Shown piece after piece: positions 35,874-44,141 of a DNA stretch of 64,000 nt. The notes beneath the pieces are model-generated. The model saw nothing but the letters and a program-made list of their open reading frames with translations. It ran no database searches and was not told where the DNA came from. Location: assembly GCA_046706685.1 (NCBI GenBank), contig JBJKPE010000052.1:2198-66197 (forward strand), in the 5' to 3' direction. The first letter of the stretch is position 1. Each line of letters starts with the position of its first letter. The position numbers and the translations under genes are program-made. Source of the stretch: Thermodesulfovibrionales bacterium (GTDB lineage: Bacteria; Nitrospirota; Thermodesulfovibrionia; Thermodesulfovibrionales; UBA6898).

Positions 35874-36158
35874 ATGCATCAGCCGGGGAAAAACCTAATG
35901 TCTAACGAAACAAACTCTTCCATACTGGATAACCAGGGGCGAGGCAAGGTCGGGGAATTTCCTATAGACGAAATCCAGACTGTCTCGAAAATTTCGGCGG
36001 CTTTTTGTCCGCATTGCAAGACTATCACTAATCTGAGCGTATCTCTTATTCCTGTCATTGATACTGACCCAGACGGGAAGGAAATAATTTTAACTTCGAG
36101 GACGTATCACTGCGAAAACTGCGGCTTGTTTGTGAGATGTGAGGAGGATGGCCTTTGA
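35874..36158 (+). CDS. Small zinc-ribbon protein (CPHC...CENC), unknown function
   Basis: The 94-aa ORF (or 86 aa from the ATG at 35898) has two CxxC pairs 31 residues apart. Its stop overlaps the TTG start of hsdM by 4 nt. I recognise no family. Confidence 0.45.
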   Translation: MHQPGKNLMSNETNSSILDNQGRGKVGEFPIDEIQTVSKISAAFCPHCKTITNLSVSLIPVIDTDPDGKEIILTSRTYHCENCGLFVRCEEDGL

Positions 36159-38260
36159 CGACGTCACTCAATAAGCCGAAACTCGACAACCTTGCCGAAG
36201 AAATCTGGAAGTCAGCCAATCGGTTGCGCGGCAAGTTCAAGGCATATGAGTACCAGAATGTTGTCCTGCCGATCATAGTTATCCGCCGCCTGGAGTGCGT
36301 GCTGATCAAGTGGCGGGAGGACAAAGCCGCTGAGGTGAAGGCCAAGCGGCCCAAGTTGACGGAGAAGGAATTGGCCAAGCTGGTAAAAGGCCTGGAAACA
36401 AGTACTGCGTCGTTTTCCAACAAGACCGGCTGGACGCTGCGCCGGGTATATGAGGAAGACCATGCCCTGATCGAAGAGAACTTCAGGGCATATATCAACG
36501 GGTTTTCAAAGAATGTCGATGACATTATCGAGCATTTCAACTATCGGGCCACCATAAGCCAGATGGTGAAGAATAACCGCCTTGCACCGATCTTAAACCA
36601 ATATAAGGAGCTGGAACTCGGGCCGGACAAGCTCTCACCGCTGGAGATGGGCTACATCTATGAAGAACTGCTGCGGCGTTTCTCGGAACAAAGCGGCGAG
36701 GAAGCCGGGGAGCACTTCACCCCGCGTGAGGTGATCCGCCTGATGGTAGAGCTGCTCGATATCCCGATCCCGGACAGGCACATATCCATCTATGACCCGG
36801 CGTGCGGAACCGGAGGTATGCTTTCCGTAGCCAAGGAACATCTGCTTGACCGCGCTGCTAATCCTGAAGAGAAGGCCAACGTCGAGAAATTTGTTACTGT
36901 TCATGGACAGGAGATGTCGCCGACCAACTATGCCATCTGCCAGGCCGACCTGCTGATCAAGAACGATAAGCAGGCCAAGGTTTATCTCGGCAACTCGCTT
37001 ATTCCGCATGACCCGCACAGCAGGGAGCCAGGCGATCAGCTTCCTGAACCGAGGCACCAGTTTGATTTCATGCTCTCCAATCCGCCGTTCGGTGTGACCT
37101 GGGGCGGCAAGGATGGTTACGAGGCCGAGGCACGGAAACTGAAGAAGACACGCTACCAGGCGGGCATGCCTCGCGTGAATGACGGCGCACTGCTTTTTTT
37201 GCAGACCATGCTGGCCAAGATGAAGGAGCCGGAGAAAGGCTCCAGTCGCATAGCCATAATTTTCAATGGCTCTCCGCTCTCAAATGGGGACTGCGGTTCC
37301 GGGGAGAGCGAAATCCGCCGCTGGATTCTCGAAAACGACTGGCTCGACGCCATCGTGATGCTTCCCGATCAGCTCTTTTATAATACCGGCATCTTCACAT
37401 ACATCTGGCTGCTGCGAAACGACAAGCCTTCCTCACACGAGGGGCGGGTTATGCTGATCGACGCCCGCCATCAGTATGAGAAGGAGCCCAAATCTTTCGG
37501 CAATAAGCGAAACCGGATAATTGATGCTCATCGCGCCTGGATAGAGGAACGCTATCGTAATGGCTGGAAGAAAGGATATTCAGACGACAACGTTAAGCTG
37601 TTCCGTCGCGATGATTTCGCCTACCACAAGGTCAGTGTCGTCTTCTGGCAGTTCGATGAGAATGACCAGCCGGCCACGATAACAGAGCCTTATGAGAAAA
37701 CATTCAGTGCTGCCAATCTGAAAAAAGAGCAGGAGTTCTATGAAAGTGAGCTTGAGTTTCGGGTTACCCTGTCATTCCCGCTTGGCGGGAATCCTTCCGG
37801 GAAGAAAGATTGCAAGAAATCACCCTCCCTTAATCCCTCCCCTCAAGGGAGGGAAAATGTTACACCCTCGCCCCTTGGGGGAGAGGGGAGGGAGAGGGGT
37901 AATTCGGAGACAGTTACAAGGGTGGTTTCATTTAGCCTTTCTCCAAAAGACAATGCAGCAAAGAAGTTAAAAGAACTGATGGACGACAAGCCGGAGGTCC
38001 TCTCAGCAGAATGGACCCACCGGCATTATGTTAAGGATGATGAATACATCCCGCACGGCGAGGACATCGAAACGTTTCTAAAGCGTGAGATCGCCAAGCC
38101 TATCATCCGCTGGGAGGACAGCCCCCAGTTCGGCTATGAAATCCTGCCGAACAAGTACTTCTACCGCTACCAACCACCTACACCGGCGAAGGAGTTGCTT
38201 GAAGAGTTTTGGCGTCTTGAAAAAGAGGCGGAAAAGTTGCTTGAGGGTTTGGCGACGTGA
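36155..38260 (+). CDS. hsdM: Type I restriction-modification system, DNA methyltransferase subunit M
   Basis: The HsdM N-terminal domain is LAEEIWKSANRLRG. The AdoMet motif is DPACGTGGML and the catalytic motif is NPPF (LSNPPFG). The 701-aa length includes a ~44-aa repeat-derived insertion. Confidence 0.9.
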   Translation: MTTSLNKPKLDNLAEEIWKSANRLRGKFKAYEYQNVVLPIIVIRRLECVLIKWREDKAAEVKAKRPKLTEKELAKLVKGLETSTASFSNKTGWTLRRVYEEDHALIEENFRAYINGFSKNVDDIIEHFNYRATISQMVKNNRLAPILNQYKELELGPDKLSPLEMGYIYEELLRRFSEQSGEEAGEHFTPREVIRLMVELLDIPIPDRHISIYDPACGTGGMLSVAKEHLLDRAANPEEKANVEKFVTVHGQEMSPTNYAICQADLLIKNDKQAKVYLGNSLIPHDPHSREPGDQLPEPRHQFDFMLSNPPFGVTWGGKDGYEAEARKLKKTRYQAGMPRVNDGALLFLQTMLAKMKEPEKGSSRIAIIFNGSPLSNGDCGSGESEIRRWILENDWLDAIVMLPDQLFYNTGIFTYIWLLRNDKPSSHEGRVMLIDARHQYEKEPKSFGNKRNRIIDAHRAWIEERYRNGWKKGYSDDNVKLFRRDDFAYHKVSVVFWQFDENDQPATITEPYEKTFSAANLKKEQEFYESELEFRVTLSFPLGGNPSGKKDCKKSPSLNPSPQGRENVTPSPLGGEGRERGNSETVTRVVSFSLSPKDNAAKKLKELMDDKPEVLSAEWTHRHYVKDDEYIPHGEDIETFLKREIAKPIIRWEDSPQFGYEILPNKYFYRYQPPTPAKELLEEFWRLEKEAEKLLEGLAT
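37769..37900. repeat. In-frame MITE-like/GC-hairpin repeat insertion inside hsdM
   Basis: It starts with ctgtcattcccgc...gcgggaatcc, the same terminus as the element at 46747. Two GC hairpins follow (tccctccc-ctcaa-gggaggga; ccctcgcccc-ttg-ggggagaggg). It translates as low-complexity LSFPLGGNPSGKKDCKKSPSLNPSPQGRENVTPSPLGGEGRERG. Confidence 0.5.
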
Positions 38261-39591
38261 TGATTCGGGCTAATGAACCTTGGCTGGGGGTCGTGCCTGC
38301 CGACTGGCCGCCAAGCCGCGTTAGAAATGTGGCCCAACTGTCGCCGGGTTACTCCGATGGCCTTCCCGTTTCAGACGAACTATGCACAGTCGTTCCCATG
38401 GAGCTTCTCTCTGAAGATGGCAGGCTCGATATTAGCTCTTCTAAGATGTTCGAAGAAATTACTGGCGGGCTTACGCTGTTCGAAGCTGGAGACGTTCTTT
38501 TTGCCAAGATCACTCCGTGCATGGAAAACGGTAAAGGTGCCTTTATAGAGAGTCTGCCGACACGGTATGCGTTTGGCAGCACAGAGTTTCATGTCCTTCG
38601 CCCGAAGCACGCCGTACACCCAAAGTTTCTCTACTACTACACGTTTAATCCGATATATCGCGCCTATGCAGCTGCCAACATGTCTGGTGCTGCAGGACAG
38701 AAACGGGTCTCTTCCCGCTTTCTAAAGGACACTCGGCTATTTCTTCCTCCGTTTCCTGAACAAGAGCGTATTGCGGCGTTTCTTGATGCGAGTTGTGCGG
38801 CAATTGATGCGGCAGTGGCGGCTAAACGGCGACAGATCGAGACACTCAATAAAATGCTTGTTTCTACTATCGAGACCGCTGCAACGCAAGGTATAGACAC
38901 CCAAGTTAAGATGAAGCCTTCGGGACTCGATTGGCTTCCTCAAGTGCCGGCACACTGGAAGGTGCAACAGATCAAGCGTCGTTGTAAATTGCTTCGCGGA
39001 AAGTTTAGCCATAGGCCACGAAATGACCCGGCTCTTTATGAGGGCGAGTATCCGTTTGTGCAAACGGGTGATATCACGGCTGCAGAAAAGTACATACGTC
39101 ACTACTCTCAAACTCTCAACGAACTTGGGTATAGCGTGAGCAAGATATTCCCAAGGGGAACACTCGTCATGTCTATTGCAGCAAATGTTGGCGACGTGGC
39201 AATTCTCGACTTCGAGGCTTGCTTTCCGGATAGTATGGTCGGTCTAGTGCCTGATCATCATACTGACCTTGACTTCCTCTACTATCTGATGAAGGCTATG
39301 AAGGGAATTCTTCTGAGATCGGCTGTTCTTACAACTCAGCTGAATTTGAACTATGTTCGCATCGGGACAAATTTCGCCGCATTCCCACAGAAGAAGGAGC
39401 AGTGCAAGATTGCAAAGTTTTTAGATACAAGAAGTGCTGAGACCCGAAAGGCGGTTGGTATTCTGCAAAAACAGATCGAGGTTCTTACCGCCTACCGCAA
39501 GTCCCTTATCCACGAATGCGTCACGGGCCAGCGGCGGATTACCGAGGCTGATGTGGCGCGAGCGGCCAAGGTAGATGCTCATGGCGCGTAA
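38257..39591 (+). CDS. hsdS: Type I restriction-modification system, specificity subunit S
   Basis: Two target-recognition domains are separated by conserved helices (PPFPEQERIAAFLD...IETLNKML and FPQKKEQCKIAKFLD...IEVLTAYRKSLIHECVTG). It overlaps the hsdM stop. An alternative ATG lies at 38260. Confidence 0.9.
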   Translation: MMIRANEPWLGVVPADWPPSRVRNVAQLSPGYSDGLPVSDELCTVVPMELLSEDGRLDISSSKMFEEITGGLTLFEAGDVLFAKITPCMENGKGAFIESLPTRYAFGSTEFHVLRPKHAVHPKFLYYYTFNPIYRAYAAANMSGAAGQKRVSSRFLKDTRLFLPPFPEQERIAAFLDASCAAIDAAVAAKRRQIETLNKMLVSTIETAATQGIDTQVKMKPSGLDWLPQVPAHWKVQQIKRRCKLLRGKFSHRPRNDPALYEGEYPFVQTGDITAAEKYIRHYSQTLNELGYSVSKIFPRGTLVMSIAANVGDVAILDFEACFPDSMVGLVPDHHTDLDFLYYLMKAMKGILLRSAVLTTQLNLNYVRIGTNFAAFPQKKEQCKIAKFLDTRSAETRKAVGILQKQIEVLTAYRKSLIHECVTGQRRITEADVARAAKVDAHGA

Positions 39592-40120
39592 AGCGGGCAG
39601 GAAAATAGTGATTATCGCCGGGCCGAACGGCGCCGGGAAAACAACCTTTGCCCTTGAGTATCTGCCGAATGAAGGAGAATGCCCTATCTTCGTGAATGCC
39701 GACTTAATCGCAGCGGGCATTTCTCCGTTTCTTCCCGAACAGGCCGCCTTCCATGCAGGCAGACTGATGATGGATGAAATCAAGAGGCACGTGCTTAATG
39801 GTGAAAGTTTTGCCTTTGAAACGACTCTGAGCGGCAAGACTTATGCCCAAATGATCCCTGAATGGCAGCGACTGGGTTACAGCATAAAGCTGATTTTTCT
39901 TTATCTTCCTGATGTAAGAATTGCCGTTGAACGGGTAAAATATCGTGTCGGACAGGGTGGCCATAATATACCTGAAAAAACTATCAGACGCCGGTACGAA
40001 AAGGGCTGGCGAAACTTTCAGAACATCTATAGGCAGTTGGTTGATGCGTGGGTTCTTTTTGACAACTCGGGTGCAACCCCAAAGCTGGTTGATAAAGGAG
40101 AAAAATATGGCCAGGGTTAG
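39575..40120 (+). CDS. Zeta-toxin/COG4185-like P-loop NTPase (small kinase fold)
   Basis: Walker A is IIAGPNGAGKTT. FVNADLIA, FAFETTLSG, LIFLYLP and GGHNIPE..IRRRY follow the COG4185/zeta pattern as I recall it. It overlaps the hsdS end by 17 nt (an alternative ATG lies at 39581). Confidence 0.7.
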   Translation: MLMARKAGRKIVIIAGPNGAGKTTFALEYLPNEGECPIFVNADLIAAGISPFLPEQAAFHAGRLMMDEIKRHVLNGESFAFETTLSGKTYAQMIPEWQRLGYSIKLIFLYLPDVRIAVERVKYRVGQGGHNIPEKTIRRRYEKGWRNFQNIYRQLVDAWVLFDNSGATPKLVDKGEKYGQG

Positions 40121-40286
40121 ACAGCAGATTCGGGATAAAGACCTTGCAGGTGCTGAAGCGGCCCTTCGGCGAGCCGCCAGGAAGGCAAAAATTATCGCCA
40201 GACAAACTAACACACCCTTAGTGGTATATGAAAGAGGGAATGTCGTAAAAAAGTATGCAGGCAGGGGAAAGAGTAAACAGTCATAA
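40107..40286 (+). CDS. 59-aa basic protein, putative partner (antitoxin-like) of the P-loop protein
   Basis: The sequence is MARVRQQIRDKDLAGAEAALRRAARKAKIIARQTNTPLVVYERGNVVKKYAGRGKSKQS. It has its own AAAGGAG RBS 6 nt upstream. It overlaps the preceding gene by 14 nt and ends 6 nt before hsdR. In the track it is only the tail of a 113-aa frame. Confidence 0.5.
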   Translation: MARVRQQIRDKDLAGAEAALRRAARKAKIIARQTNTPLVVYERGNVVKKYAGRGKSKQS

Positions 40287-40292
40287 AAACTT

Positions 40293-43229
40293 ATGAGCCG
40301 CGCGAGAAAGAAAAAGCCCGAACTGACCTTCCAGCAGCATATCGCAGACTTCCTCGTCCGCGTTCACGGCTATGGCGTACTCGAACAGTCCGACATCACT
40401 GACACCTGGCACTGCATAGCCGAAGACCTGCTTTGGGCCTTCCTTAACGCCACGCAAGCCGATCAGCTTAAGAAGTTGAAAGACGACTACGGCACTGACG
40501 CGCGGGAGGAGGTGTTCCGGACGCTGCGCAAGGAGCTGGAGAGTACGCCGCTCTGGATGATCCTGCGCCATGGGCTGAAGGTGCGAGGTTTGGAGTTTCG
40601 GTTGTTCTACCCAAAACCGCGCTCCAGCGAAAGTGCTGCGGCAAAGAAGCACGGCGAAAACCGCATCACCTTCCGGCCGCATTTCTACTTCGGCGAAAAC
40701 AATAAAGAGATCGATTTCGTATTCTTCCTGAATGGCCTGCCCATCGCGGCGCTGGAGGTCAAGCACGAGAAAAACCAGAACGTTCATGATGCTGTAGCGC
40801 AGTTCGCGGCGCGCGATCATTCCCTTCGAATCTTCCAGCACCCTTTTCTCTACCTGGCCGCGGACACCAGCGACGTTATGGCGGCAACAGATCCGCGCCG
40901 GACTGAGAACTTCCGTTGGCACAACACCGGCCTGACCAACGCACCCCTGACAGAGGAAGAATATGCGGTAGAGTTCCTGTACCGCGAAGTGTTGTCAAAG
41001 GACGAGTTGCTGGAGCTGTTGTCGTTCTTCCTGGTCCGTGTGTCCAGGCGCGAGGCGGAAGAAGACAAGCCTGAGCGGCCTGCATTCACTATTCTGCCGC
41101 GTTACCATCAAAGCCGCATGGTGCGGAAGGTGGCGGAAGATGCCGTGGCACATTTTTCAGCTACTGGCGATATCGGCCGTAAGTATCTGATTGATCATTC
41201 TGCCGGCAGCGGCAAAACGCTTTCCATCTGCTGGCTTGCCGACCGGCTGCACAGCCTCTTCAAGCCGGGTACAAACGACAAGCTTGTAGATATGGTATTT
41301 ATTCTCACTGACAGGAAGTCACTCGACAAGAACATCAGGGACGACATCGAGAAGTTTACCCACCTGAAAGATGTGGTGGGCCTTGCGCGCAGAGCCGACG
41401 ACCTGCCCCGGTATCTCAGGGAGCGGAAACCGATCATAGTAACAACGCAGCAGAAGTTCGCCTGGGTGCTGGATGAGATCGGAAAAAAGCCGGAACTCAA
41501 AGACTTGCGCGTGGCCTTTTTGATTGACGAAGCACATCGTTCGCAGGAAGGCCAGATGGGGGTAGCCATCCGTGTGCCATTCCGCAAAGCAGACGACCCC
41601 GACACAGAAGACGCCGAGGACAACGGGGAGAATGAAGAAGAGAAGATAGCCCGGATCATCCGGGAGCACGACCTCAATCAGCTCTTTGTCGCCTTTACTG
41701 CCACCCCGGCCCCTGCAACTGTGACCCTGTTCGGCGCACCTTTCGACACCTACACAGAGGCAGAAGCAATCGCCGAGGGATACATCGTGGACGTGGCCGC
41801 GAGCATCATTTCCTATAAGACCCTCTACAATCTGCATTGCCCGGTTGTTCCGAACCCTGATGAGGAAAAGCTCTACCCGAAAGGTGTAGTCGCAAAGGCT
41901 TTGAAAAACGTTGCATATCAGGATGACGGGCTCATCCAGTACAAGGCGGAGGTTATGCTTCGCATCTTCGATGAGGACGTGAAGCAGCTCATCGGAGGGC
42001 GGGCAAAGGCGATGATTGTGGCGACTTCGCGTGTGGCAGGCCTGCGATACTTCAACATCATCAAGGAGAAGCTCAGGGAGCGTGGAGCTGACTACAAGGC
42101 GCTCTATGCATTTTCGGATTTCGTCCACCCGGCAACTAACGAGGCGATCAGTGAACACGCGATTAATGAATTGAACGACGGGGAGCCGATCGAGGACCGT
42201 TTTGAGGGAGACGACTATCGGCTGATGATCGTTGCGAACAAGTTTCAGACCGGATTTGACCAGCCGTTGCTCGCCGGCATGTTCCTCGACAAGCCGGTGG
42301 TCGACCGCAATGCGGTGCAGACGGTATCGCGGCTGAACCGCAGCCATGAAGGCAAGAAGGATGTCGTGGTGGTGGACTTCACGAACAATGCCTCGGCGAT
42401 TCTCAAGGCATTCGCGAAGTACCGCAAGGGAACGCCGTTTGAGCCGGAGGAGCCCGATCCCGAGCTGTGCAGCAGATTGCATTCAGAGATTCTTGCTGCA
42501 GGCGTCTTCACGCAGGCCGACGCTCATGACTTCGTGAAATTGGCCGCAACCGGCACAGACGCCCAGGTTCAGTTCGCCATCAAAGGGCTGCGCATGCGGT
42601 TTCAGACGAAACTTCTGTCCCCCGAAAGTCGCAAGGGCTATGTCTATCAACTGGCCCGGCTCGTTAAGAGCTTTCACTTTATGACGTGCTTCTTCACTTA
42701 TCCGGACGTGATAAAGGAATTTGTCGCATTTGCGGAATATGTGGGTCCTCAGCTCATCAAACAGGGCAGCGTGTCCGAGTTGATGAGGCAGATCCGGCAG
42801 ACCGAGGTGGTCAAGGCAGCCGTAGAGTATAAAGGCGAGGTGCATGCCACCGGCGGCGAAGTTAAGCTCAAGCCAGGTGGAGGCAAGAGAGCGGCAGGAC
42901 CGCCGCCACAGAAGGTTTCCGTGCAAGGCATGATCGATGAGATCCGAGCCAGGTTCGAAATAAGCGACGAAGAGGCACTCTACATCAAACAAGTAACGGC
43001 GGAAAAAGCGGAGGACCCAGTCATCCATAGCACAGTCCAGGCTCATCGTGAAGATCGTATATTCCTTGAAACTGCTTACAGGGGCCAGGTGAACGGGGCG
43101 ATACAGAAAAAATATGGAGAGTTGGCAAGATACGACGAACTGGCTGATCCGAAATATACGGATACAGGCGGCATATTCGACATTATGTCTGTAACGGTGA
43201 TTCAGAGCCATCTCGCGGCGGCAGCATGA
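40293..43229 (+). CDS. hsdR: Type I restriction endonuclease subunit R (SF2 helicase/nuclease)
   Basis: An N-terminal PD-(D/E)xK-type region (EIDFVFFLNGLPIAALEVK) is followed by helicase motif I SAGSGKT and motif II DEAH (LIDEAHRSQ). The protein is 978 aa. Confidence 0.9.
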   Translation: MSRARKKKPELTFQQHIADFLVRVHGYGVLEQSDITDTWHCIAEDLLWAFLNATQADQLKKLKDDYGTDAREEVFRTLRKELESTPLWMILRHGLKVRGLEFRLFYPKPRSSESAAAKKHGENRITFRPHFYFGENNKEIDFVFFLNGLPIAALEVKHEKNQNVHDAVAQFAARDHSLRIFQHPFLYLAADTSDVMAATDPRRTENFRWHNTGLTNAPLTEEEYAVEFLYREVLSKDELLELLSFFLVRVSRREAEEDKPERPAFTILPRYHQSRMVRKVAEDAVAHFSATGDIGRKYLIDHSAGSGKTLSICWLADRLHSLFKPGTNDKLVDMVFILTDRKSLDKNIRDDIEKFTHLKDVVGLARRADDLPRYLRERKPIIVTTQQKFAWVLDEIGKKPELKDLRVAFLIDEAHRSQEGQMGVAIRVPFRKADDPDTEDAEDNGENEEEKIARIIREHDLNQLFVAFTATPAPATVTLFGAPFDTYTEAEAIAEGYIVDVAASIISYKTLYNLHCPVVPNPDEEKLYPKGVVAKALKNVAYQDDGLIQYKAEVMLRIFDEDVKQLIGGRAKAMIVATSRVAGLRYFNIIKEKLRERGADYKALYAFSDFVHPATNEAISEHAINELNDGEPIEDRFEGDDYRLMIVANKFQTGFDQPLLAGMFLDKPVVDRNAVQTVSRLNRSHEGKKDVVVVDFTNNASAILKAFAKYRKGTPFEPEEPDPELCSRLHSEILAAGVFTQADAHDFVKLAATGTDAQVQFAIKGLRMRFQTKLLSPESRKGYVYQLARLVKSFHFMTCFFTYPDVIKEFVAFAEYVGPQLIKQGSVSELMRQIRQTEVVKAAVEYKGEVHATGGEVKLKPGGGKRAAGPPPQKVSVQGMIDEIRARFEISDEEALYIKQVTAEKAEDPVIHSTVQAHREDRIFLETAYRGQVNGAIQKKYGELARYDELADPKYTDTGGIFDIMSVTVIQSHLAAAA

Positions 43230-43894
43230 AACGTCCATTCGCGAAAATACCGAAGGATGAACGGCCGCGAGAAAAGCTGCTAGCACGCGGCGCCAAGTCT
43301 CTGAATGATCAGGAACTGCTTGCCATTCTAATTGGCAAAGGTACTCCCAGGATGGATGTGATGACTCTTGCGGCTAAGCTCTCCAAAGTCATAGACGAAA
43401 AAGGGATTGAACTGCGACCGGAGGATCTTGCATCTTTCGACGGTATAGGAGATGCCAAATCTACGCTAATACTTGCGGCGATAGAGTTCGCGCGGCGTCG
43501 AATAAAGCCAGAAGGAATAAAAATCGAGACACCGGCCGACTTGCTGCCTTTAATACGCCATTATGCTGATCGCAGGCAGGAGCATTTCATAGCTGCTTCT
43601 GTTAACGGCGCAAATGAGGTAATGAATATTCGGGTTGTGTCAATTGGTTCTGTGGATCGTACGACAGTTCATCCGCGCGAGGTCTTTGCTGGTGTGCTTG
43701 CTGACAGGGCCAGCGGAGTAATCGTCGCTCACAATCATCCGGCTGGTGTCCTTAATCCGTCAGTCTGGGATCTCGATATCACCAGGCAGCTGAAGGCAGC
43801 CGGGGAGGTTGTAGGGTTGATTTTACTGGATCATATCATTTTCAACAGAACAGGCTATTACAGCTTTCTCGAAAATGGAGCATTGGGGGGATGA
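43226..43894 (+). CDS. radC: RadC-like JAB/MPN-domain protein
   Basis: The N-terminal HhH region is RPREKLLARGAKSLNDQELLAILIG. The JAMM motif is HNHPAGVLNPSVWD. There is an ATGA overlap with the hsdR stop. Confidence 0.85.
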   Translation: MKRPFAKIPKDERPREKLLARGAKSLNDQELLAILIGKGTPRMDVMTLAAKLSKVIDEKGIELRPEDLASFDGIGDAKSTLILAAIEFARRRIKPEGIKIETPADLLPLIRHYADRRQEHFIAASVNGANEVMNIRVVSIGSVDRTTVHPREVFAGVLADRASGVIVAHNHPAGVLNPSVWDLDITRQLKAAGEVVGLILLDHIIFNRTGYYSFLENGALGG

Positions 43895-43955: not shown

Positions 43956-44141
43956 ATGATTAAGACCCAGGTTATCAAGGAAGACAATAAGCCGGTCGCG
44001 GTAATTCTTGATTACAATGAATATAAGAGATTGAAGGAAATCGAGCAGGACAAGGCCGACTATTACTCTGCTGTCTCGGTCAAAGCAAAGAACAAGAAGT
44101 GGACAAGTCACGCAGAACTGAAATCCCGACTTGGCGTGTAA
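43956..44141 (+). CDS. Phd/YefM-like type II antitoxin (61 aa)
   Basis: KPVAVILDYNEYKRLKEIEQD matches the Phd/YefM core pattern. An AGGAGG RBS lies 7 nt upstream. Confidence 0.5.
   Translation: MIKTQVIKEDNKPVAVILDYNEYKRLKEIEQDKADYYSAVSVKAKNKKWTSHAELKSRLGV

Follow-up and report, generated by a model that had tools for sequence, protein, structure and literature searches.

A two-gene cassette of a zeta-toxin-like kinase and a small partner protein recurs in type I, type III and type ISP restriction-modification operons

Toxin modules within restriction-modification (R-M) loci and defence islands are a general phenomenon that is already well known. The gene prrC is located between hsdS and hsdR (PMC12707154). 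In the 64,000-nucleotide (nt) stretch analyzed here, hereafter the window (Thermodesulfovibrionales bacterium, GenBank assembly GCA_046706685.1, contig JBJKPE010000052.1, positions 2,198 to 66,197 of the forward strand), this position in a type I operon is occupied by two genes, one for a zeta-toxin-like P-loop kinase of 181 amino acids (aa) counted from the first ATG (39575..40120, + strand) and one for a basic protein of 59 aa with an isoelectric point (pI) of 11.5, here called the partner (40107..40286, + strand; ATG at 40107, TAA ending at 40286). Kinase and partner together behave as an autonomous mobile two-gene cassette. With PrrC and RloC the cassette shares its place in a type I operon, after hsdS and before hsdR, the possession of a P-loop NTPase and a candidate role as second-line suicide effector. 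PrrC, however, is a larger ATPase-nuclease, which has no separate antitoxin and is silenced by the R-M complex, whereas the cassette brings its own partner. Searches of Pfam, NCBIfam and PADLOC gave no match to PrrC or RloC, which are composed of an ABC-type ATPase N-domain and an anticodon-nuclease C-domain.

The cassette also resembles the toxin-antitoxin (TA) systems epsilon/zeta and PezAT, whose toxins are UDP-N-acetylglucosamine (UNAG) 3'-kinases. Like them it is a two-gene module found on plasmids and in islands, and its kinase has the P-loop kinase fold, passes the Pfam model and keeps the Walker A Lys and the catalytic Asp. The kinase of the window is, however, shorter than zeta and PezT by approximately 75-110 residues, and the GTXR motif, which is the motif of zeta/PezT that binds UNAG (PMC6362051), reads T-T-L-S/A. 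Antitoxins of the epsilon/PezA type are encoded upstream and block the ATP site of the kinase. The partner differs from epsilon and PezA in that it is encoded downstream of the kinase, has a length of 57-65 aa, is composed of a helix and a hairpin without a helix-turn-helix (HTH) and is unrelated to them; in the window it is hsdS which lies upstream. The order of toxin followed by small partner, which had been pointed out in a previous reading of the window made from the sequence alone (the sequence-only reading), is the rule for this kinase subfamily. The small zeta-like protein Rv0366c of M. tuberculosis keeps a P-loop and a catalytic Asp and likewise lacks GTXR; it has been shown to be bacteriostatic, with Rv0367c, encoded next to it, as the neutralising protein (PMC6362051). 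The window kinase is likened to Rv0366c by description, and the two pairs differ in that the antitoxin Rv0367c is encoded upstream, carries a ribbon-helix-helix (RHH) domain and has no R-M link. A 2023 census of PezT proteins admitted only matches to the Pfam model with an E-value of at most 1e-10 (PMC10532202); as the E-value of the window kinase misses this limit, the kinase subfamily was left out of that census.

A third group to be considered are the polynucleotide kinases (T4 Pnk, C. thermocellum Pnkp and Pnkp1), which are similar to the window kinase in size and fold and by the presence of a catalytic Asp after strand 2 and of an RxxxR lid. In T4 Pnk and C. thermocellum Pnkp the acceptor is held by an Arg at position +3 after the catalytic Asp. 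The window kinase differs in that it stays below the threshold of the Pfam model AAA_33, lacks the Arg at +3 and has no phosphatase or ligase partner.

The best plasmid match of the kinase is located on pSYSG of Synechocystis sp. PCC 6803 (L088; loci are cited by their L numbers), where the gene order is hsdM (sll8009/ssl8010), a DUF433/PIN pair, hsdS (sll8006), the nucleotidyltransferase gene ssl8005, sll8004, ssl8003, sll8002, sll8001 and hsdR (sll8049). The product of sll8004 is a zeta-family kinase which is 57% identical to that of the window, and ssl8003, with a 4-nt overlap, encodes a hypothetical protein of 59 aa. The pSYSG type I system is of the same family as that of the window (HsdM 33% and HsdR 32% identical), but its hsdS-hsdR gap contains in addition an MNT-like nucleotidyltransferase and a DarT/DarG-like pair composed of sll8002 (DUF4433) and sll8001 (a macro-domain protein). 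Three cassettes hence stand in a row in this gap (L088 5694-8429), and the DUF433/PIN pair is placed between hsdM and hsdS. Judged by this gene content, the pSYSG type I operon acts as an apparent landing pad for TA-like modules. The genes sll8001, sll8002, ssl8003, sll8004 and ssl8005 were listed by Kopfmann et al. (2016) as "genes related to TA modules" which fell short of the criteria (PMC4963859), and the pSYSG R-M system is inactive (PMC6105098). The statement of the sequence-only reading that no characterised pair was known in this position still holds, with the qualification that the same arrangement in pSYSG has been mentioned as TA-related. Save for that passing mention of Synechocystis we found no published description of a zeta/COG4185 kinase linked to hsd or other R-M genes, and no paper which characterises a pair of the sll8004/ssl8003 type or reports its R-M association.

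The kinase and its partner

In Pfam the kinase matched Zeta_toxin (PF06414) with 33.5 bits against a gathering threshold of 22.3 (E 3.5e-8; residues 9-166 of the kinase, positions 16-189 of 199 in the model), while AAA_33 remained below threshold (22.9 bits vs 27). The best matches to the NCBIfam models of housekeeping kinases (shikimate, gluconate, adenylate, guanylate) scored 12-17 bits against cut-offs of 100-290; with no NCBIfam model near its cut-off, a housekeeping small kinase was rejected. Homologues of the kinase formed at least 8,000 clusters of 90% identity at E<=0.001 in a word-index search, with a typical length of 174 aa, and an exhaustive search among 50%-identity representatives retrieved 10,796 at E<=1e-3 and 456 at E<=1e-30. 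The names given to them in the source databases are "zeta toxin family protein" or, in records from JGI, "predicted ABC-type ATPase", which we take to be the title of COG4185. The AlphaFold2 (AF2) model of the kinase has a mean per-residue confidence (pLDDT) of 83, and the top Foldseek matches of this model were PezT and zeta (E 8e-7 to approximately 1e-6; TM-score normalised to the query, TMq, 0.70). Close behind were C. thermocellum Pnk (TMq 0.65-0.67; normalised to the target, TMt, 0.70), the tRNA kinase PSTK and AvrRxo1. The assignment to the zeta/COG4185-like kinases made in the sequence-only reading is thus supported by the Pfam profile, the top fold matches and the names, no housekeeping kinase scores better, and the landmarks on which it had been based (Walker A GPNGAGKTT, FAFETTLSG, GGHNIPE and RRRY) are all present in the 181-aa open reading frame (ORF).

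Alignment with PezT and zeta by hhalign reached 79% probability over the N-terminal 102 columns. D43 of the kinase was aligned with the catalytic D66 of PezT, and E82-T83-T84-L85-S86 was paired with E-G-T-L-R of PezT, the segment with the GTXR motif. Across 150 diverse cluster representatives the residues K22, D43, E82, T84, R120, R124, G129-H130 and R139-R140 are 87-100% conserved, the Walker A residue K22 and the putative catalytic base D43 each being kept in 145 of them. The position of the GTXR Arg is taken by Ser in 89 and by Ala in 59 of 149 representatives, and position +3 after the catalytic Asp is occupied by Ala throughout. By its residue pattern the kinase is a putative intact phosphotransferase, a minimal and distant zeta-family member bordering the polynucleotide kinases. 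Because the Arg of GTXR is absent UNAG is doubtful as a substrate, and its use by the kinase is unlikely, contrary to the chemistry which the label zeta had implied. Both proteins are basic (median pI 9.2 for the kinase and 10.4 for the partner) and a nucleic-acid substrate is therefore possible; candidates are small molecules of the NAD or nucleotide-sugar kind and, among nucleic acids, tRNA or a polynucleotide with a 5'-OH end.

Kinase and partner genes were found to be adjacent in 76 of 88 loci by phmmer (87 fetched loci and the window). With a hidden Markov model (HMM) of the family, and with contig ends and divergent copies accounted for, the partner was recovered behind 84 of the 85 intact kinases. 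Kinase stop and partner ATG share an ATGA in 63 of 75 loci. Partner proteins are 49-99 aa long (median 62) and share the core D-x-D-L...A-L-R-R-A-A-x-R-A-R-x-L-A-x-Q-T-G-T-P-L-V-V-x-x-x-G, in which A19, R22 and A27 are invariant. The partner of the window is predicted to form one long helix (core ALRRAAxxA), a T-x-T-P turn and then a beta-hairpin. No relative of the partner was identified by Pfam and PDB searches, and a Phd/YefM-like fold, which was suspected from the succession of helix, T-x-T-P and hairpin, was rejected as none of 39 members matched Phd/YefM at E up to 1. A word-index search with the 59-aa sequence alone retrieved only itself; a profile query was needed, and this identified at least 1,338 clusters whose names, where there are any, are "hypothetical" or evidently unrelated. 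On the grounds of this conservation we regard the partner as a genuine conserved gene and a new, unannotated family. The proposal of the sequence-only reading that a 59-aa ORF with its own AAAGGAG is masked by a longer frame has in this way led to a real gene.

Natural fusions of kinase, linker and small domain were present in 25 of the 150 kinase representatives, although some of those called may have arisen in assembly. One such fusion, P0125, was modelled with AF2 (pLDDT 86; predicted TM-score, pTM, 0.85), and its small domain takes the form of a helix of 24 residues and then a beta-hairpin. The loop past the catalytic Asp has a pLDDT of 48 in the kinase-only model of the window and the equivalent block one of 84 in the P0125 fusion model, it being noted that different proteins and alignments are compared. 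These models suggest that the partner domain may pack near the active site of the kinase. Other architectures were also seen: P0134 (316 aa) is a kinase homologue with two tandem partner domains, and some homologues (among P0123, P0124 and P0134) have an N-terminal winged-HTH or XRE-type HTH in place of the C-terminal partner domain.

The cassette inside and outside restriction-modification operons

The distribution of the cassette was surveyed in 80 loci, the highest-ranking among at least 573 metagenome matches to an alignment query, so that the fractions given here hold for the close subfamily only. Neighbouring genes were classified by iterated HMMs, Pfam and PADLOC, and near-duplicate loci were removed. 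The cassette directly follows an R-M specificity or methyltransferase gene in 18 of the 57 non-redundant loci (32%) with at least 600 nt of upstream flank, and in 14 of 47 when at least 1 kb was required; the survey for which the sequence-only reading had asked thus shows a strong enrichment in R-M loci, and this is specific to one position, the junction from specificity or methyltransferase gene to restriction gene. Type I loci of the form hsdS-[cassette]-hsdR account for 14 survey loci, besides the window and pSYSG. The type III arrangement is represented by L048, where mod-[cassette]-res has a 3-nt gap, and by the orthologous loci L054, L066 and L068, and in the type ISP locus L036 the cassette follows the specificity domain. 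No type II R-M system was recognised among the classified neighbours. At both ends, toward the S or Mod gene before it and toward the R gene behind it, the cassette is tightly joined, in many cases by an overlap of 4 nt. That the cassette is repeatedly embedded at the M/S-to-R junction in three R-M types, all of them ATP-dependent, seems not to have been described before.

Comparison of the embedded copies points to both age and repeated acquisition. In the type I family of the window (L012, L014, L015, L021 and L023/L026) the kinases are 63-74% identical to that of the window, with values of 64-68% for HsdM, 63-69% for HsdR and approximately 66% for RadC. As the kinase has diverged about as much as HsdM, HsdR and RadC, the cassette of this lineage is best read as an old retained resident of the operon which has co-diverged with hsdM, hsdR and radC. 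The Hsd proteins of other type I families share no more than 25-33% identity with those of the window or are undetectable while the kinase is still 57-67% identical, a disparity which indicates, at the level of sequence, independent captures of the cassette by R-M operons. The R-M-embedded kinases are dispersed across the kinase dendrogram.

Approximately 70% of the assessable loci contain no R-M genes; here the cassette is found in TA islands, on plasmids, as Tn3 cargo or between housekeeping neighbours. The closest relatives of the window kinase (80-84% identity) are those of L005, L006, L008 and L009, and the two among them whose context was classified, L005, with housekeeping neighbours, and L006, in an island of TA genes and insertion sequences, are without R-M genes. 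Further examples are a TA island (L090), housekeeping neighbours (L096) and a position behind a Tn3 transposase (L089). Among the plasmid-borne copies, one in Legionella follows a Tn3 transposase and one in Nostoc lies among VapBC pairs; other copies are located beside PemK/Fic genes or gyrase genes. Distant plasmid homologues (approximately 38% identity) occur in IncP-like stable-inheritance regions, where a small ORF is upstream instead. The start of the cassette often overlaps a co-oriented upstream gene, whatever that gene is, and usually the cassette has no intergenic space of its own; genes coupled to it in this manner include those for a glycosyltransferase (L027), an epimerase (L053) and glutaminyl-tRNA synthetase (L082). 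A phage origin was rejected, with just four weak matches among 50,697 phage records.

Decay of the cassette could be followed in a small number of loci. In L002 a frameshift and a stop have made the kinase a pseudogene beside an intact partner. The reverse, an intact kinase lacking its partner, was seen at most once, in L082, where the kinase is accompanied by a divergent truncated partner-like ORF. The few cases fit the pattern of toxin loss before antitoxin loss which is typical of TA pairs. Lone partners were also encountered. In Geotalea uraniireducens Rf4 (CP000698; L094 5001-5219) a 72-aa partner homologue, without a kinase or a kinase remnant, is located between an SLFN_AlbA_2/HATPase_c_4 gene and hsdR, directly upstream of the latter. 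In Geobacter argillaceus (L097 4475-5198) a 65-aa partner without kinase lies 28 nt after a DUF559 / MTES_1575 endonuclease-like gene. Kinases may not be the only kind of effector with which the small partner protein pairs.

Some neighbours of the cassette belong to other defence systems or are candidates for them. In L085 (31-1911) a gene similar to PADLOC Avs3a in the C-terminal 590 residues of the latter (E 3e-64) shares its last 19 nt with the start of the kinase gene, in L033 (8089-9267) the PDC-S01 candidate defence gene (E 1.5e-159) is located approximately 400 nt downstream of the cassette, and in L075 the neighbour is an AAA_15/AAA_21 ATPase. On the strand of the cassette, large ORFs of 862 and 1143 aa (L037 4373-6961 and L073 24-3455) stop 36 nt short of its start; neither was matched in Pfam or PADLOC, and both are candidates for uncharacterised defence genes.

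The operon in the window

Within the 64-kb window the cassette is part of a single tight co-oriented gene string, hsdM-hsdS-kinase-59-aa ORF-hsdR-radC, which extends from 36155 to 43894. The methyltransferase subunit HsdM (36155..38260, + strand, 701 aa) was identified by Pfam N6_Mtase (E 4.7e-56) together with HsdM_N, and by the PADLOC model MTase_I PDLC03029 (E 3e-176). The hsdM stop is overlapped by 4 nt by the start of hsdS (38257..39591, + strand), whose product of 444 aa matches Pfam Methylase_S in two stretches (E 2e-25) and PADLOC Specificity_I (E 1.8e-75). Downstream of the cassette the restriction/translocase subunit HsdR (40293..43229, + strand, 978 aa) matches Pfam SWI2_SNF2, ResIII, a T1R_D3-like domain and HSDR_N as well as NCBIfam hsdR (E 6e-58). 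The last gene, of the radC family with a JAB domain (43226..43894, + strand; Pfam RadC, E 9e-35), starts with a 4-nt overlap of the hsdR stop.

The kinase ORF runs at its start into the stop codon of hsdS (TAA 39589-39591), an overlap already seen in the sequence-only reading. A Shine-Dalgarno-like AAGG at 39568-39571 is located 9 nt before an ATG at 39581 and just 3 nt before the ATG at 39575, and kinase homologues start with "MARK" (e.g., P0001). Since this spacing and the start of the homologues both suit the second ATG, the true start of the kinase is probably 39581, which would make the protein 179 aa long and the overlap with hsdS 11 nt; the length of 181 aa stated before is correct for the ORF from 39575 and is probably two residues too long for the protein. 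The Shine-Dalgarno sequence AAAGGAG of the partner (40094..40100, + strand), read directly from the sequence, lies within the 3' end of the kinase gene, 6 nt ahead of the start of the small ORF, which overlaps the kinase stop by 14 nt. The 59-aa ORF is the C-terminal part of a mechanical 113-aa GTG frame (39945-40286), and hsdR begins 6 nt past its end.

On inspection of the window sequence no promoter or terminator belonging to the cassette stands out within the operon; the lack of a promoter-like site ahead of the cassette, together with the tight gene junctions, indicates a single operon. A recent insertion was rejected, there being no notable flanking direct or inverted repeats and a GC content only slightly lower, at 0.46-0.53 vs 0.50-0.58 in the hsd genes. 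In L015 and L021 radC also directly follows hsdR (approximately 66% identity). From this comparison the conserved unit is a predicted six-gene operon, hsdM-hsdS-kinase-partner-hsdR-radC, with radC as its last gene. Two further ORFs were considered as conserved members of the operon and were rejected, neither being conserved in related loci. The first, of 94 aa (35874-36158, + strand), has two Cys pairs (CPHC...CENC) and the look of a zinc ribbon, and its end overlaps by 4 nt a mechanical TTG start of hsdM; Pfam gave no significant match to it, and in L015 and L021 no counterpart stands ahead of hsdM. The second, of 61 aa (43956-44141, + strand) and just past radC, gave a sub-threshold match to the Phd/YefM antitoxins (E 2.8e-5); no toxin gene that could be its partner is apparent, and the next long gene runs on the opposite strand. 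It should also be noted that HsdM contains, between the methyltransferase core and the C-terminal region (approximately aa 530-600; 37740-37990), a low-complexity insertion rich in Pro, Gly, Ser and Lys, PLGGNPSGKKDCKKSPSLNPSPQGRENVTPSPLGGEGRERG, which contributes to the unusual length of this protein.

Candidate roles of the cassette

The explanation which we favour, with a confidence somewhat better than even, is that of a self-contained TA-like kinase module which has been repeatedly recruited into ATP-dependent R-M operons, where it serves as a backup abortive effector and/or an addiction module. It builds on the anatomy of the locus, the conservation, coupling and fusion of the two genes, their mobility, the R-M enrichment and the intact catalytic residues. 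The kinship with zeta, the toxicity of the GTXR-less Rv0366c (PMC6362051), the TA-like distribution and the decay pattern are the reasons for which the pair is read as TA-like. As to toxicity, neutralisation, trigger and substrate, the following scheme is proposed. An active small P-loop phosphotransferase would be the effector of a promoter-less cassette, and the translationally coupled and sometimes fused helix-hairpin partner would bind the kinase and hold it inactive. The cassette would travel between contexts as a downstream operon passenger, and type I, type III and type ISP operons would have captured it repeatedly at the junction from methylation/specificity to restriction genes, where it would be co-transcribed with the R-M genes. 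A collapse of R-M expression or translation, by phage shut-off or by loss of the locus, would then remove the inhibition by the partner, and the freed kinase would phosphorylate an essential metabolite or nucleic acid and arrest the cell. The cassette would thereby provide abortive defence as a second layer and/or render the cell addicted to the defence locus.

Several observations weigh against this explanation. PADLOC has no model that matches the kinase or the partner beyond P-loop noise. In Pfam the partner had no HTH, RHH or AbrB match, and classical autoregulation is not evident. The R-M fraction of 27-32% comes from the best matches only, which represent the close subfamily, and is without a control TA family for comparison. 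The frequent covalent fusion and the basic pI of both proteins suit an enzyme with a regulatory or substrate-binding subunit equally well. Finally, when the family profile was compared with PDB sequences, it was the RNA-repair kinase Pnkp1, and neither zeta nor PezT, that gave the best and sole full-length match (E 8.9e-5), with the RxxxR lid shared.

These last two points would agree with a non-toxic accessory kinase, acting on polynucleotides (5'-OH RNA/DNA), tRNA or nucleotides in end-healing, repair or nucleotide metabolism, for which the basic and often fused partner would be the substrate-binding or regulatory subunit. Such an enzyme would also account for the presence of C. thermocellum Pnk and PSTK among the top Foldseek matches, for the missing GTXR Arg, and for a size of approximately 175 aa, which suits the kinase domains of Pnk and not zeta (approximately 250-290 aa). 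We nevertheless consider this unlikely: it is the Zeta_toxin model that is passed while AAA_33 fails, the neighbourhoods of the window, L005 and L006 contain no phosphatase, ligase or Hen1 gene of the sort that accompanies RNA-repair kinases, and at +3 from the catalytic Asp an invariant Ala stands against the Arg of T4 Pnk and C. thermocellum Pnkp. The TA-like distribution, the loss of the toxin first and the toxicity of Rv0366c (PMC6362051) are better suited to a toxin.

A PrrC-like guard is in our view likewise improbable. According to this explanation the kinase, with or without the partner, has a physical or functional link to the ATP-dependent restriction enzyme. Any phage anti-restriction protein (Ocr, ArdA or Stp-like) by which this enzyme is blocked or dismantled would set the kinase free to kill or arrest the cell. 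The position from hsdS to hsdR is identical to that of prrC, and the embedding is in type I, type III and type ISP systems, all of which have helicase-like ATP-dependent R subunits, with no type II system recognised. The tight junctions to the S/Mod and R genes, often as 4-nt overlaps, the co-divergence of the cassette with HsdM and HsdR in the type I lineage of the window, and, in Geotalea uraniireducens, the lone partner gene immediately ahead of hsdR point in the same direction. The S-to-R junction may, however, be a mere permissive insertion site, as the pSYSG gap also holds MNT and DarTG-like genes. The analogy to PrrC, which the sequence-only reading had offered, is not supported as far as the mechanism is concerned: neither sequence nor domains are similar to PrrC or RloC, the conserved partner makes silencing by the R-M complex unnecessary, unlike in PrrC, and approximately 70% of the loci, including the close relatives L005 and L006, are outside R-M loci. 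In a more specific version the cassette, which in the R-M operons of these three types always precedes the motor-nuclease gene, is a dedicated guardian of ATP-dependent restriction, the partner or the complex monitoring the R subunit or its activity so that blocked restriction frees the kinase onto tRNA or a 5'-OH RNA/DNA end and not onto a cell-wall precursor; this version we hold to be quite improbable.

Very improbable, finally, is a selfish passenger, an addiction module which hitch-hikes and gathers at the S-to-R junction through tolerated insertion and has no effect on phage defence, since, for all that the cassette is promoter-less and coupled to any upstream gene (L027, L053, L082), travels on plasmids and as Tn3 cargo and shares the pSYSG gap with other TA-like pairs, the R-M embedding of approximately 30% and the Avs3, PDC-S01 and AAA_15 neighbours are far above what is expected of a random passenger, and the cassette has been kept through approximately 35% protein divergence of its host operon.

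R-M-embedded toxin modules, of which PrrC is the paradigm, are one of the few known bacterial retaliations against anti-restriction, and to our knowledge very few effectors of this kind have been defined so far. The pair of kinase and partner reported here is widespread and was previously unannotated, with approximately 30% of the assessable non-redundant loci of the close subfamily inside type I, type III or type ISP operons. Synechocystis PCC 6803 is genetically tractable and carries the homologous genes sll8004 and ssl8003, which makes the hypotheses directly testable. If the reading of the cassette as a guardian of restriction were true, it would bring a new toxin chemistry to the zeta superfamily and a new class of anti-anti-restriction. 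If the cassette were a mere hitch-hiking addiction module, it would still be of value to annotation by adding a new antitoxin-like family and a distinct minimal zeta-like subfamily which has been excluded from PezT censuses.

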